From Octopus sinensis (lineage: Eukaryota), in the NCBI RefSeq assembly GCF_006345805.1, contig NC_042998.1:42470001-42534000 (forward strand): a DNA stretch of 64,000 bases, read 5' to 3'. The position numbers and the translations under genes were made by a program. Positions within the stretch are counted from its first letter, which is position 1. The number at the start of each line of letters is the position of its first letter. The notes beneath the pieces are model-generated. The model searched no databases. It was not told the origin of the DNA and worked only from the letters and a program-made list of their open reading frames with translations. Below, piece after piece: positions 20,973 to 56,791 of this stretch.

Positions 20973-21266
20973 TATCTGTAAATGTAATATGTGATAACTA
21001 TTTGGTAGTCATGATAAAATTCCGAGCTTCGGATGCCGAGGTGGAAATCCATGCCGCCATCTCTTCAGTTATCCAGCCATCGGAAAAATGTGTTTATTTA
21101 TCTTATGTAAAAGAAAGCTTTCCATCTCATACATTTATTTATCTTAGGCATTTTTCCGATGGCTGGATAACTGAAGAGATAGCAGCATGGATTTCCACCT
21201 CGACATTTGAAACTCAGAGTTTTATCATGGCTACCAAATAATTGTCACATATTACATTTACAGATA
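20973..21266. mobile_element. Inverted repeat (118-bp arms 20973-21090 and 21149-21266) with a hammerhead-like motif at 21166-21226
   Basis: GATAA-CTGAAGA-...-GAAA-CTCAGAG-TT-TTATC; the arms are reverse complements; TA runs nearby. Confidence 0.65.
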
Positions 21267-21328
21267 AATTCCTCTATTTACATAATATCGAGGTCTCTTT
21301 CTTTCTTTTGTTGTCTTACCGTTTTTAT

Positions 21329-21361
<33 letters not shown>

Positions 21362-21367
<6 letters not shown>

Positions 21368-22815
21368 TGTAGGTAGAAACTCTATAAGATGTACCCAGTG
21401 TAAGCTATGGACACATAAGAGGTGCAGCAATGTCAAAGGTAGGCTAACTGGGAAGATAGTTTTTGTATGTGGCAGATGCTCGGGAGCATTGACCTCCGAA
21501 AATCTGCAGAAAACAACTTCCGTCACTTTCCGGGGGGAAAAACTAGAAGTAGTTGATAGCTTCCGCTATCTAGGTGACCAAGTCAGTAGTGGGGGTGGGA
21601 GCGCTGAAAGTGTAACTGCTAGAATAAGAATAGCCTGGGCAAAGTTTAGGGAGCTCTTACCTCTGCTGGTGACTAAAGGCCTCTCGCTCAGAGTAAAAGG
21701 CAGACTGTATGATGCATGTGTACGAACAGCTATGCTACATGGCAGTGAAACATGGGCCGTGACTGCTGAGGACATGTGTAAGCTCGTGAGGAATGAAGCC
21801 AGTATGCTCCGATGGATGTGTAATGTCAGTGTACTTACTCGACAGAGCGTTAGTACCTTGAGGGAAATGTTGTACCTAAGAAGCATCAGTTGTGGTGTGC
21901 AAGAGAGACGATTGCGCTGGTATGGTCATGTGGCGAGAATGGATGAAGATAGGTGTGTGAGAAAGTGCCAATCCCTAGCAGTTGAGGGAACCCGTGGAAG
22001 AGGTAGACCCAGGAAAACCTGGGACGAGGTGGTGAAGCACGACCTTCGGACGTTAGGCCTCACCATGGAAATGACTAGAGACCGAGACCTATGGAAGTAT
22101 GCTGTGCGTGAGAAGACCCGGCAAGACTAGTGAAGCCATATCCCGTGGCCTCTACCTGGGACGTAGTCAGTCCACCTGTGCATACCTTCCTTATTGTGAC
22201 ACTTGAGAAGACCTGTTGAGGCAAGTGAAAATCAAAATCAAAACCAAATCAAAATAGATGTACATCAATGGAATTTGTATCCTATTTGTATCCTGTATGG
22301 TACCAGTGCCGGTGGCACATAAGAAAACCATCTGAACGTGACCGTAGCCAGTACCGCATCAACTGGCCTCCGTGCTGAGGGCATGTAACAAACACCATCC
22401 GAGCGTGGCCATTCGCCAGCCTCGTCTGGCACCTGTGCCGGTGACACATAAGAAAACACCATCCGAGCGTGGCCGTCTGCCAGCCTCGTCTGGCACCTGT
22501 GTAGGTGGCACATAAAAAACACCATCCGAGCGTGGCCGTCTGCCAGCCTCGTCTGGCACCTGTGTCGGTGGCACATAAAAAACACCATCCGAGCGTGGCC
22601 GTCTGCCAGCCTCGTCTGGCACCTGTGTCGGTGGCACATAAAATCACCCACTACACTCTCGGAGTGGTTGGCGTTAGGAAGGGCATCCAGCTGTAGAAAC
22701 ACTACCAGATCTGACTGGCCTGGTGCAGCCTTCGGGCTTGCCAGACCCCAGTTGAACCGTCCAACCCATGCTAGCATGGAAAGCGGACGTTAAACGATGA
22801 TGATGATGATGATAT
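21362..22815 (+). mobile_element. 5'-truncated RTE-clade LINE, young copy: intact C-terminal ORF2 to the stop at 22130, 3'UTR with ~61-bp tandem repeats, (GAT)n tail, inserted in (TA)n
   Basis: ORF contains FRYLG, RIRIAWAKF, HGSETW, RRLRWYGHVARM and RGRGRPRKTW, typical of the RTE post-RT region. Confidence 0.9.
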
Positions 22816-32829: not shown

Positions 32830-33571
32830 GTAGACCCAGGAAAACCTGGGACGAGGTGGTGAAGAACGACCTTCGCGCTTTAGGTCTCACCGAGAAAATG
32901 ACCAGAGACCGAGACCTTTGGAAGTATGCTGTGCGCGAGAAGACCCGGCAGGACATGTGAGGCCATAACCCATGGCCCCTACCTGGGACGTAGTCAGTCC
33001 ACCTGTGCATACCTTCCTTCTTGGGTCACATAACTCTACTTGTGAAGACCTGTTGAGGCAAGTGAAAATCAAATCAAATCAAAATCGATGAACATCAATG
33101 GAATTTGTATTTTTGTGGTACCAGTGCCAGTGGCACATAAGAAAACCATCCGAACGTGGCCGTAGCCAGTACCACATCGACTGGCCTCCATGCTGTGGGC
33201 ACGTAACAAACACCATCCGATCGTGACTGTGCCAGCCTCGCCTGGCCTCCATGCTGGTGGCACGTAGAAAACACCATCTGAGCGTGGCCGTTTGCCAGCC
33301 TCGTCTGGCACCTGTGTCGGTGGCACAAAAAAAAAACACCATCCGAGCGTGGCCGGTCACCAGCCTTGTCTGGCACCTGTGTCGGTGGCACATAAAAAGC
33401 ACCCACTACACTCATGGAGTGGTTGGCGTTAGGAAGGGCATCCAGCTGTAGAAACACTGCCAGATCTGACTGGCCTGGTGCAGCCTTCAGGCTTCCCAGA
33501 CCCCAGTTGAACCGTCCAACCCATGCTAGCATGGAAAGCGGACGTTAAATGATGTTGATGATGATGATGAT
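32827..33571 (+). mobile_element. RTE 3' fragment in (TA)n. Further 3'-UTR-only copies at ~2348-2460, 12540-12760, 18056-18298, 27884-28385, 31625-31910, 34440-34868, 35530-35890, 36205-36749, 51578-52031, 56446-56770 (minus), 61530-61994
   Basis: Shared terminus GGCGTTAGGAAGGGCATCCAGCTGTAGAAAC...CATGGAAAGCGGACGTTAAACGATGATGAT. Confidence 0.85.
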
Positions 33572-41537: not shown

Positions 41538-43255
41538 CATTTTTCTTTAGGTTTTGACAGTTACTCAAGCTAAACAACCACAGTACTTCTCATGCCTTGG
41601 AAAATGTACAAATTTTAAATAGCTTCTTCTTTCAGACTATACTTTTAAAACCCAGCCGTTTTTTAATAACCATCATTGTATCGAAACTCATTGTATCATC
41701 TGACCAATTCTTAATCATGTCAGCACATTCCAAATACTCTTATTGTACAACCCCACCCACTTGAATGCTCTGCCAACAGATTATAGATCCACTACTTGTA
41801 CACCATGTTCCCCTGACTACAGTTTTATGTCAATCAATGGCACATTTGAACCAGTAACTGAAAACCATCTTCTGAGGCGAGTCCTTTTACATTTCTCACA
41901 CATTTATTTTCTTTAATTTTTTTTTTACTCTGAATTGTTCTACTTAGCAATCAGATTCATATATTGTATCCCTGTCTACAATATTTAATATTGCTTGTGA
42001 TGTGAATATGTATGTGCACTTTGCTAAGGAATATAGTATATATAATACATAATAGAAACCATTATAATCTATGATGGGTCTTTTAACTACATGCTAGTGA
42101 TAGTTTTCTTAAGTTTGCTTTTTTTTAGACAAGTATTATACAAATACCTGAATTTCATTGTTTGTTCTCAATAGTATGGATTTCTCATTTTATATAGAGA
42201 TTGTCATAGTTGCAGCAGAGCTATATGCCTCACTACAATGCTGTTAAAAGAATATTCTTTTACAGTCATCTCTCTCTCTCTCTCTCTCATTCATATGGTA
42301 TCAGAAACTTATTTTTGCTTGCATGACTTGCATGTTGACTGGCAATGGAAAAGAACATACTTTATACAAACTTACACTCCGATTTCTCTTTGAGCTAATG
42401 TACACAGATATAAAGACGCATTCATTGACATCTTTGTGTAAATACTAACTTTTGTTTGTCAGTCATTCAAACTTGACTTTTCTGTTTGTGTTCTCTATTG
42501 GCCCGATGGGGTTAATTTATTCTATTTAATGCTAGTAAATATGTTGTGGTTATTAACATGCAATCTTAACCTATATTCTCCTTTACAAAGTTATGTATGC
42601 ATTCTCCCAAAGCTTAAACCAATAAATTTTTGTCTTTTTGAATTAAAATGATTATCAGAAACATTATATATGTATATGTGTATTTATTATTATTTTTATT
42701 GTATTTTTGTATCTATATTCATGTAACATTGTCTGTTTTTCTGTCCTTGTTTTCATATACATTCGATGCTTTTTTCCAAGGAATATAATGCTCTTAGCTT
42801 AGTTTTTCCTTGGGGCTGGCCAGATTGGAGTAATCTCAAGATTAATCAGCCAAAATTGCAAGGATGATTGGGTTCTTGACTGAGGATAAAAGGCTTCAAA
42901 TGACTCGTCCTTATTTTTTGTATCGTCTATCTGGATGTTTTGTTGTCCCTTTCTATATCACCTAGTTGTCCAGATGTTTTGCATTCTTGTCCCATTTTGT
43001 GTTTTATATATATATATATATATATAATAGAAATATTAAAATTACTAAGTCTCTCTAAAGGAGATTACGGCAGCGTTACTGGATATTAATAGTTATTGCC
43101 ATACTAATATGGCAGTCTATAAACATAAGACTAAAGCTGTTGCTGATTAGCTCCAAGAGGCCACCACCTCTAGCTAGCTATATGACACACGAACCTGCGT
43201 CCATTACAACCTTCGAATAGGGGAGGTCAGCCGCTTCACCTTGATAGTCAGACAT

Positions 43256-43296
43256 CTGCAGACATGTTTCAGGGTTGTTGCTCTTTATCAATGCAG
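43256..43296 (-). ncRNA. Minimal hammerhead in the inverted copy, with one stem II mismatch
   Basis: Reverse complement of the same motif, with AGAG/CCCT in stem II. Confidence 0.65.
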
Positions 43297-43374
43297 CGTA
43301 GTCAGAACCAGCAGGTGTCGCTACTGACCGTCTGTTCGAAGATTTTATTTACCTAGTTACAGTAGAATACTACG

Positions 43375-43415
43375 CTGCATTGATAAAGGGCAACAACCCT
43401 GAAACATGTCTGCAG
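43375..43415 (+). ncRNA. Minimal type I hammerhead ribozyme, U3-A8 core variant (copy 1)
   Basis: CTGCA-TTGATAA-AGGG(CAACAA)CCCT-GAAA-CATG-TC-TGCAG: 5-bp stem I, 4-bp stem II, palindromic stem III ACATGT, GUC cleavage triplet. Confidence 0.8.
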
Positions 43416-43736
43416 ATGTCTGACAAGCAAGGTGAAGCAGCTGACCTCCCCTGTTCGAAGGTTGTAATGGACGCAGGTTCGTGTGTCATATAGCTAGCTA
43501 GAGGCGGTGGCCTCTTGGACCTAATCAGTGGCAGCTTTAGTCTTATGTTTATAGACTGCCATATTAGTATGGCGATAACTATTAATATCCAGTAACGCTG
43601 CCGTAATCTCCTTTAGAGAGACTTAGTAATTTTAATATTTCTATTATTGAAAACAAGTGGATGTATTCCACTGTAACTAGGTAAATAAAATCTTCGAACA
43701 GACGGTCAGTAGCGACACCTGCTGGTTCTGACTAAG

Positions 43737-43777
43737 CTGCATTGATAAAGGGCAACAACCCTGAAACATGTCTGCAG
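43737..43777 (+). ncRNA. Minimal type I hammerhead ribozyme, U3-A8 core variant (copy 2)
   Basis: Identical 41-nt motif, 362 nt downstream of copy 1. Confidence 0.8.
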
Positions 43778-43948
43778 ATGTCTGACTAGCAAGGTGAAGC
43801 GGCTGATCTCCCCTGTTCGAAGGTTGTAATGGATGCAAGTTCGTGTGTCATATAGCTAGCTAGAGGCGGTGGCCTCTTGGAGCTAATCAGCGACAGCTTT
43901 AGTCTTATGTTTATAGACTGCCATATTAGTATGGCGATAACTATTAAT

Positions 43949-44017
<69 letters not shown>

Positions 44018-44236
44018 TTTTAAAAAGTGATAATCAAACAAGCATGTTCAAACTATATTCAAAATCATTTTCAGAACCCTTTTATTTGCAGGAAACAAAA
44101 ACAGAAATAGACAAACATCAACAGTATTGGTTTATTTTGATAAACTATTAAACCAATATGTATACAAATGTTTATGTCACACTCTGTGCATTTAGCTAGC
44201 TTATCTGAAAAAAAAGTTACAATTCATATGACTTGC

Positions 44237-44309
44237 CTGTAGACCAAGGAGCCAAATCATCATTGATTCATGATTTTCTGCACAAAATATGTATTCTTTT
44301 CCATTGCAC
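44237..44309 (-). CDS. TBC1D2: Coding exon 3, PH C-terminal helix (CNGKEYIFCAENHESMMIWLLGLQ), GC donor
   Basis: tgtcag acceptor; CAG|GCAAGT non-canonical donor; PH helix with the conserved Trp. Confidence 0.85.
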
Positions 44310-44766
44310 CTGACAAACAGTAAAGGGAATAATAAGTAACAATTCTTCCTTCATTTTTCTTTGAGTATATTATTGAATTATCTCAAATCAATGAATTCAT
44401 TAATAATAATAATGAATATCAACAATAGTAATAATTATATCAACAGTAAACTCACTTGGTACACTCTGCACAAAACAAGTAACACAGAGCCTATCACAAC
44501 TCAATAAAATAACATAACTCACATATTCCTCTCTCTACAATACAGTAATATAATACATACTATTTCATAATTAGCACCCACTTCTATAAAATCAACAACT
44601 TACCTACCTTACATTATATGCCTATTAATATAATGCTGCACAACCATACTCTACACCAATGGTTCTCGACCTTTTGTACCTCAGTGTTCCCTTTCACTGA
44701 ATGGTATTTTACAAATAAAAATAAAAGTTTAAAAAATAGGCACTTAAGGTGGCAAGCTGGCAGAAT

Positions 44767-56413: not shown

Positions 56414-56791
56414 GTTTGTATATGCATATGTATGTATAAATATATCATCATCATCATCATCATCATTTAGCGTCCGCTTTCCATGCTAGCATGGGTTGGA
56501 CGGGTCAACTGGGGTCTGTGAAGCTGGAAGGCTTCGTCAGGCCCAGTCAGATCTGGCAGTGTTTCTACGGCTGGATGCCCTTCCTAACGCCAACCACTCC
56601 GCGAGTGTAGTGGGTGTTTTTTTACGTGCCACCTGCACAGGTGCCAGACAGAGCTGGCGAACGGCCACGAATGGATGGTGCTTTTACGTGTCACCGGCAC
56701 GGGGCCTGGCGATGCTGGCAACGGACACGAACGGATGGTGCTTTTACGTGCCACCGACACGGGGCCAGACAGAGCTATATATATATGTATG

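Follow-up and report, generated by a model that had tools for sequence, protein, structure and literature searches.

Described self-cleaving elements and the octopus locus

Positions 43024 to 43950 of a 64,000-nucleotide stretch of Octopus sinensis DNA (contig NC_042998.1, 42,470,001 to 42,534,000 of the forward strand; hereafter the window, numbered from its first letter) hold an insertion built from a 362-nt unit, with hammerhead ribozyme motifs in which the usual C3-G8 pair of the core is replaced by U3-A8. We compare this locus with three described kinds of element and conclude that the 362-nt family to which it belongs is probably an animal non-LTR (non-long terminal repeat) retrozyme that a Neptune-type Penelope enzyme moves in trans.

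Animal non-LTR retrozymes (Cervera and de la Pena 2020, PMC7229834; PMC7761336; preprint 10.64898/2026.07.22.740005) are non-coding units of 170-400 nt (150-450 nt where the class is defined more broadly) with one type I hammerhead each, present as tandem and dispersed copies, with a weak palindromic helix III suited to cleavage as dimers, a GC content below 50%, a highly self-paired monomer, and co-occurrence with Penelope elements. The octopus family resembles them in each of these respects and differs in its U3-A8 core. It also differs in form: the others are described as plain tandem arrays with large target duplications, whereas copies of the 362-nt family mostly span 0.3-2 units and are 5'-truncated, inverted, and set in (TA)n with two fixed ends. 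Circular RNAs have been demonstrated for the coral, mussel and axolotl retrozymes, with Penelope elements nominated as mobilisers (PMC7229834), and a Penelope origin has been argued from co-occurrence and from homology to pseudo-long terminal repeats (pLTRs) in frogs (preprint 10.64898/2026.07.22.740005). Retrozyme repeats are described in PMC7761336 as having no conserved motif that indicates a mobiliser; the ends of the 362-nt family do indicate one.

Neptune-type endonuclease-bearing Penelope elements form tandem and inverted insertions with a bias for (TA)n and a tail that is often at one end only (PMC8557442). Work on the Anolis element PAc reported two initiation sites, extension of both target strands with neither site favouring one strand, a protein predicted to dimerise, and a hammerhead that is protein-assisted and dispensable for insertion (PMC11167929). 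The 362-nt family is like these elements in its partial tandem and inverted 5'-truncated copies and in targeting (TA)n; it likewise has a tail that is often confined to one end, two putative initiation sites, and a hammerhead located upstream of its ends. Unlike them, it has no reverse transcriptase (RT) or GIY-YIG frame and no detectable homology to the sampled pLTRs, its tail is 59 nt rather than 30-40 nt, and its ends look like microhomology to the target, whereas PAc initiated at a site non-homologous to the target (PMC11167929).

The third system is the Cercyon Penelope element of Schistosoma mansoni, to which about 1,300 U3-A8 motifs have been linked (PMC4209133). The double change in the catalytic core is identical to ours, so the U3-A8 core is already published and is not new. 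The Cercyon motifs were found through Cercyon homology among minimal hammerheads and are mostly single and heterogeneous, whereas in the octopus family U3-A8 occurs in hammerheads of canonical proportions, in tandem units, and in young homogeneous subfamilies. Our literature search, which left most subscription papers outside its reach, found no paper on the 362-nt family, a U3-A8 retrozyme, or the strict rule of insertion ends described below. What is added here to the known systems is that end rule, a swap of the stem III palindrome, and co-resident candidate enzymes.

The insertion in the window

The initial annotation had described two identical motifs 362 nt apart and an inverted copy within (TA)n, laid out in the tandem and inverted fashion of Penelope insertions. 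Both descriptions hold: the coordinates are correct, and the arms, the fixed ends and the (TA)n flanks were all found. The features are listed here, with unit positions (u) numbered from u1 = 43411, the first base past a predicted cleavage site.

43006 to 43025, unstranded: left (TA)n target microsatellite, read from the sequence; overlaps the element end by microhomology
43024 to 43370, minus strand: inverted arm, 347 nt, u253-362 then u1-237, stopping at fixed end 2
43024 to 43038, minus strand: fixed 3' end 2 (u237) joined to (TA)n; 905 exact matches to this junction in the source assembly, control 0
43256 to 43296, minus strand: hammerhead copy 3, U3-A8, one stem II mismatch
43369 to 43950, plus strand: direct arm, 582 nt, 1.6 tandem units, u321-362, u1-362, u1-178
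43375 to 43415, plus strand: hammerhead 1, with its parts on the next two lines
43375-79 stem I, 43380-86 core U3 to A9, 43387-43400 stem II, plus strand
43401-03 G12-A14, 43404-09 palindrome ACAUGU, 43410 C17, plus strand
43411 to 43772, plus strand: 362-nt cleavage-to-cleavage monomer, non-coding, predicted by folding to be highly self-paired
43580 to 43588, plus strand: internal copy of the end-1 motif (u170-178)
43589 to 43647, plus strand: 59-nt "tail" between the two fixed ends (u179-237)
43737 to 43777, plus strand: hammerhead 2, identical to hammerhead 1, C17 at 43772
43942 to 43950, plus strand: fixed 3' end 1 (u178) joined to (TA)n
43947 to 44012, unstranded: right (TA)n target microsatellite

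By inspection of the sequence, the two plus-strand 41-mers are identical, and the minus-strand hammerhead differs from them by a single base, which makes the 5' strand of its stem II AGAG and leaves an A-C mismatch. The predicted cleavage sites lie after 43410 and 43772 on the plus strand and after 43261 on the minus strand. The two arms are fused head to head with an overlap of 2 nt, and the direct arm is truncated at its 5' end 6 nt upstream of hammerhead 1. Unit copies within the insertion are 96% identical and its two arms differ by 3.4%, so that this is an older insertion. (TA)n borders it at about 43006-43025 and 43947-44012; a target-site duplication, which in retrozymes exceeds 4 bp where there is one, would be masked by this target. 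The 59-nt tail is analogous to the Penelope tail (PMC8557442, PMC11167929).

A script scan of the whole window for a hammerhead core with a palindromic stem III found a full stem I in these three motifs only, along with one further weak match having 2 of 5 stem I pairs. The element contains no coding frame, the longest ATG-started frame being 39 amino acids. The locus was rejected as an autonomous Penelope element, since no RT or GIY-YIG frame was found in it, and a tblastn search with the family B Penelope protein (see below) gave no match anywhere in the window. A tRNA-derived short interspersed element was likewise rejected: ARAGORN found no genes in any of four loci, a test that decayed tRNA-like heads could escape.

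A dispersed family with two fixed ends

The window locus is one copy of a dispersed non-coding repeat family. The exact 41-mer has 158 matches in the 2.72-Gb source genome assembly, and the reversed-pattern control used for all such counts has none; the motif is therefore not a chance occurrence. U3-A8 patterns together have 2,691 matches (64 in the reversed control), made up of 691 with the palindrome ACAUGU and tail GAAACATGTC (control 54) and 2,000 with ACGCGU, GAAACGCGTC (control 10). Among the first 100 places listed for each pattern most bear the stem II of the 362-nt family, and a few of the ACAUGU places do not. Subfamilies are 80-97% identical to the window unit.

The family is linked to a Penelope mobiliser through the anatomy of its insertions. 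The first set comprised 85 insertions after removal of duplicates; it was anchored on the hammerhead or the unit and is biased to copies that keep the hammerhead. Of its 121 scored 3' ends, 97 are found no more than 6 nt from u178 or u237, two sites 59 nt apart. The 5' ends are scattered. Only one of 121 lies within 3 nt of the cleavage site, so that in this biased set they are not enriched there. A broader survey covered 101 insertions, of which 61 were inverted. Both ends lay at fixed sites in 35 of these 61, and every one of the 35 combines one u178 end with one u237 end (L230 and L231, both counted, duplicate each other; L numbers denote sampled loci). The remaining 26 have at least one end elsewhere. 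A set anchored on the ends added eight new inverted insertions, all of them mixed in the same way. Arms of the same insertion differ by a median of 2.8%, compared with 6.2% to other copies, and are each other's nearest or tied nearest in 18 of 49 cases. The family thus inserts in the Penelope manner, with copies that are truncated at the 5' end, partly tandem and inverted, a tail at one end, and a bias for (TA)n.

Some copies are long. Arrays with 6-8 hammerheads occur among the loci, and single insertions reach about 6 (L237) and 10 units (L238) between the two fixed ends.

Contigs from sequencing runs of four organisms (A, B, C and D) contain the family; none of its carriers is on record as RNA, and contigs can show neither ends, strand nor circles. 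The 362-nt step-back joint is present also in runs not marked as RNA. Among 40 listed variant places (at least 49 exist), none falls within 43375-43415, a weak hint at most.

Co-resident Penelope elements

The source assembly contains intact two-frame Penelope elements, and one candidate mobiliser among them is a family that we call B. Its intact frames of 775-777 amino acids match RVT_1 (slightly below the curated cut-off) and GIY-YIG and have a CX4CXXC linker, described as typical of Neptune and Nematis (PMC8557442); by this linker family B would be classed as Neptune-type. It is young, with at least 19 copies identical over 180 amino acids. Its pLTR carries a hammerhead variant with C at position 4 and the palindrome AGUACU (974 exact matches). 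Family B repeats the end pattern of the 362-nt family: it has two ends 47 nt apart in (TA)n, and all five inverted insertions with both ends readable are mixed, three more having an end elsewhere or unclear. The first end of family B and u178 of the 362-nt family have TATTAATAT in common. A search of the genome with the endonuclease region returned family B only.

Two further families are relevant. In the older family A the hammerhead is U3-A8, its palindrome is AGCGCU, and the two ends lie about 35 nt from each other; the related family A2 shares this palindrome but carries C3-G8. The hammerheads of these autonomous families were found by eye and with looser scans, having been missed by the strict regular expression. 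The initial annotation had asked about adjacency of the unit to RT and GIY-YIG frames. Among the loci sampled at that point, tblastn placed a Penelope RT beside a family copy in two only: L008, where a (TA)n tract lies between them, and L021, where the match was weak; none was found in the 30 end-anchored loci. That the mobiliser would belong to the Penelope class is well supported by the comparison of ends and frames.

Several observations on these families stand apart from the mobiliser question. Family B was seen at L095-L101, L104, L106 and L108, where an upstream frame of about 450 amino acids with no Pfam match runs into the RT-endonuclease frame in a different phase, an overlap suggestive of a frameshift. 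The related autonomous families A and A2, which differ at the 3-8 pair (U-A in A, C-G in A2) and keep AGCGCU, were seen at L103, L064, L107, L273, L276 and L280 versus L285 and L287. At L273:5761-5850 a short inverted pair of another U3-A8 hammerhead, with ACCGGU and a 5-bp stem I, is inserted in (TA)n behind a Penelope element.

Hammerhead structure and covariation

The core reads U3 U4 G5 A6 N7 A8 A9 / G12 A13 A14 / U16.1 C17, and with its 3-8 pair and three helices it has the make-up of a type I hammerhead. The initial annotation had proposed that C3-G8 was replaced jointly by U3-A8 with the pair kept, and the family agrees: U3-A8 is present in 140 of 145 motifs collected by regular expression (about five of the 145 not being family members), position 7 takes all four bases, and the helices covary. 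With GAAACATGTC, the 3-8 combinations number C-G 599, U-A 691, C-A 142 and U-G 133 (controls 13, 54, 24 and 26); the listed C-A and U-G mismatch matches look mostly like decayed C-G copies.

The motif had also been taken, from its ACAUGU palindrome, for a minimal Penelope hammerhead. The palindrome of the dimer type stands; the assignment to the minimal class does not, and we rejected it. Canonical metazoan type I hammerheads are defined by a helix I of 5-6 bp, a helix II of 4 bp and a short palindromic helix III, and minimal Penelope hammerheads by a helix II of 7-8 bp and no helix III (PMC4209133). Here helix II has 4 bp and helix III is present, as 2 bp and a 2-nt palindromic part, so that the proportions are canonical.

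Covariation was scored in 17 hand-picked haplotypes, 14 of the 362-nt family and three of a C3-G8 sister family, whose rows are related and not independent. In these, pairing holds in 97.5% of cells, and 8 of the 14 pairs vary on both sides, with at most one in slid controls. Subfamilies covary in stems I and II. The stem III palindrome is swapped between subfamilies, ACAUGU for ACGCGU, each self-complementary; its central bases are AU in eight haplotypes, GC in nine and mixed in none, and among the 145 collected motifs AT in 104, GC in 38 and other in three. That these central bases are kept complementary fits a double hammerhead, whereas a single hammerhead gives no reason for it. The swap is thus a natural covariation for the double-hammerhead model, and the sequence evidence as a whole supports a type I hammerhead fold in which U-A preserves the 3-8 pair. 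The initial annotation expected standard pattern searches to miss this variant; the curated Rfam models do miss it, giving no hammerhead match at E<=5 in 42500-44500.

Predicted folding and monomer release

The linear 362-nt monomer has a predicted folding energy of -124.1 kcal/mol (z-score -6.1). Circular folds of all 18 natural monomers gave z-scores of -3.8 to -9.9, against -0.1 to -0.8 in five flank controls, with 15 shuffles each. The closing helix of the predicted monomer fold is stem I of the double hammerhead.

In 38 natural tandem pairs (two of which look like chance matches of the regular expression, and many of which come from the same arrays, so that the rows are related), the double hammerhead is predicted to lie no more than 3 kcal/mol above the minimum in 33, appears complete in the unconstrained fold in 18, and is better than two separate monomers in 37. 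For positions 43369-43800 the energies are -138.8 for the double form, -140.4 for the minimum and -125.9 for two monomers; the double form of the window pair would cost 0.4-1.6 kcal/mol and be better than two monomers by 13.

The initial annotation expected a plus-strand transcript to release a 362-nt monomer. The unit and a near-minimal double fold are in keeping with this, but plus-strand read-through would transcribe the antisense arm first, and so hammerhead 1 is predicted to pair fully with its antisense copy in a whole-insertion transcript, where the double form would cost about 137 kcal/mol. The minus-strand hammerhead is likewise buried in the predicted fold. From this window locus a 362-nt monomer is predicted only if transcription starts inside the insertion, and the copy is probably a dead end, giving a long hairpin rather than serving as a source of monomers. 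The 43772/43411 junction, suggested as a marker of circles, fails in that role; genomic tandem copies already contain it.

Proposed mode of mobilisation

The family leaves the same two-end footprint in (TA)n as Penelope elements do, and is therefore likely to be a self-cutting RNA parasite that borrows their enzyme. The reading of a non-LTR retrozyme mobilised in trans by a Neptune-type enzyme, which we consider probable, draws on the size of the family, the covariation of its hammerhead, its two fixed 3' ends and random 5' ends, the combination of one end of each kind in inverted insertions, and the recurrence of this pattern in an intact co-resident Penelope family. Tandem source copies would be transcribed; two hammerheads next to each other would associate by their stem III palindromes and excise a monomer, to be closed into a circle by a host ligase. 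The Penelope reverse transcriptase-endonuclease would then nick both strands of a (TA)n tract; one nick would prime complementary DNA (cDNA) at u178 and the other at u237, through AT-rich microhomology. Both cDNAs would pass the hammerhead and exceed the unit length before their truncated 5' ends were linked head to head.

A more specific form of this scheme, which we put forward tentatively and hold to be somewhat doubtful, is that circular retrozyme RNA templates a dimeric Neptune-type enzyme whose active sites dock asymmetrically at u178 and u237, each primed by one nicked (TA)n strand.

Several results weigh against mobilisation of a retrozyme by Penelope, or against parts of the scheme. 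One insertion, L026, has two u237 ends; its arms are parted by an internal (TA)n and have a common 5' breakpoint, and it was left out by a 60-nt gap rule. The end motifs in common with family B, being AT-rich, may have converged on the (TA)n target. BLAST detects no homology between the unit and the Penelope loci sampled (45 and 20, partly overlapping, from families A, A2 and B), its matches there being short, AT-rich and attributable to chance, so that these families stand as candidate partners. Arrays are not uniform: in L237 one unit differs from four near-identical units. In a further array, L239 (positions 28191500-28197500 of contig C1 of the source assembly, G000), which has seven hammerheads, units alternate between two sequence types, with similarity at lag 2, as could be expected of a copied dimeric circle or of DNA duplication of a dimer. 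Such non-uniform arrays are no proof of rolling-circle copying; local DNA expansion fits as well.

Other such points concern the ribozyme itself. The initial annotation had proposed that the core and stems should be better conserved than their surroundings. Within one subfamily (46 whole copies in 29 loci) non-majority letters make up 2.2% of the hammerhead and 3.1% of the remainder, a comparison that is nearly uninformative because most divergence arose after insertion. Of 44 columns that differ between subfamilies A, B and C, the 41-nt hammerhead accounts for six, which is not below expectation; these are at tolerated places except for one column driven by a single locus. The window subfamily has A-U at 10.1-11.1, where G-C is usual. 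The predicted rod is not backed by covariation, most subfamily differences at rod-paired columns breaking the pair. Insertion by the Anolis Penelope element did not require hammerhead cleavage (PMC11167929), and only one of nine Xenopus retrozyme dimers cleaved in vitro (preprint 10.64898/2026.07.22.740005).

Alternative explanations

The alternative that survives best, unlikely in our judgement, is that the family is a non-autonomous Penelope parasite copied from uncut linear multimer transcripts, with a hammerhead that is weak or protein-dependent and no circular template. Copies read through the cleavage site and their 5' ends are unenriched there (one of 121, in the biased set), as this explanation would have it, but a circular template predicts read-through equally. 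The heterogeneous units of the arrays suit it too, as do the arms of the window insertion, which match 12 of 56 other arms at least as closely as they match each other, and the reported use of unprocessed RNA by Anolis PAc (PMC11167929). It sits less well with the covariation between subfamilies, which preserves a dimer-competent ribozyme, with the predicted fold of the unit, which juxtaposes two hammerheads, and with the accumulation as circles of coral, mussel and axolotl retrozymes of similar size (PMC7229834).

We find it very hard to credit that the window locus is a pLTR remnant of an unsampled autonomous Penelope element, truncated and inverted in the usual way. Its architecture is that of Penelope insertions (PMC8557442), the pLTR of autonomous family A contains a U3-A8 hammerhead, and our searches scored the best candidates only. 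The unit, however, repeats head to tail at a strict spacing of about 360 nt, for up to about 10 units, and has no coding frame, while an RT stands beside a family copy only in L008 and weakly in L021 among the sampled loci, and in none of 30 end-anchored loci. Hammerhead pairs 1.4-4.4 kb apart (L061-L063, L169, L170) were considered as pLTRs enclosing an open reading frame and rejected, there being no Penelope RT frame between them; they are secondary insertions, duplications or separate copies, and the sole 4.4-kb gap between two hammerheads is filled by an unrelated secondary insertion.

Least credible of all is a DNA-level minisatellite or fold-back repeat with a fossil hammerhead that spreads without RNA, for although some arrays show signs of local expansion, dispersed copies in (TA)n, fixed at the 3' end and random at the 5' end, have the polarity expected of reverse transcription, and compensatory ribozyme changes separate several subfamilies.

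Other repeats in the window and genome

A second retrozyme-like family was seen at L171 (G000:C1:171934500-171938500) and also at L112, L118, L134, L135 and L137, with a 355-nt tandem unit, a C3-G8 core, the ACAUGU palindrome, a fold z-score of -5.8, and an end-2-like motif running into (TA)n. Hundreds of decayed old C3-G8 remnants with GAAACATGTC and indistinct stems occur genome-wide (for example L109-L133), apparently from older families. The secondary insertions at L061:3023-7015 and L062:3172-4738 interrupt copies of the 362-nt family and encode a zinc-knuckle frame, which we take to be gag-like.

Elsewhere in the window, 21183-22130 is a 315-amino-acid stop-to-stop frame with no Pfam match, which resembles the C-terminal part of a long interspersed element reverse transcriptase. 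A family of tandem repeats of 60-65 nt recurs at 22386-22643, 33177-33403 and 56620-56776.

Implications

Rfam and CUGAnGA patterns overlook thousands of U3-A8 motifs, which suggests that retrozymes are undercounted in other genomes. On the question of which enzyme moves animal retrozymes, the insertion ends of the 362-nt family give independent mechanical evidence; two proposed priming sites, together with intact candidate enzymes in the same genome, make it testable with a published in vitro assay. The combination of one end of each kind is itself a sharp constraint on how Penelope elements produce inverted insertions. If asymmetric docking were true, this rule would be a general law of Penelope integration, explaining both the one-sided tail and the inverted arm, and the 362-nt family would be the first animal retrozyme whose mobiliser and priming sites are read directly from the genome.
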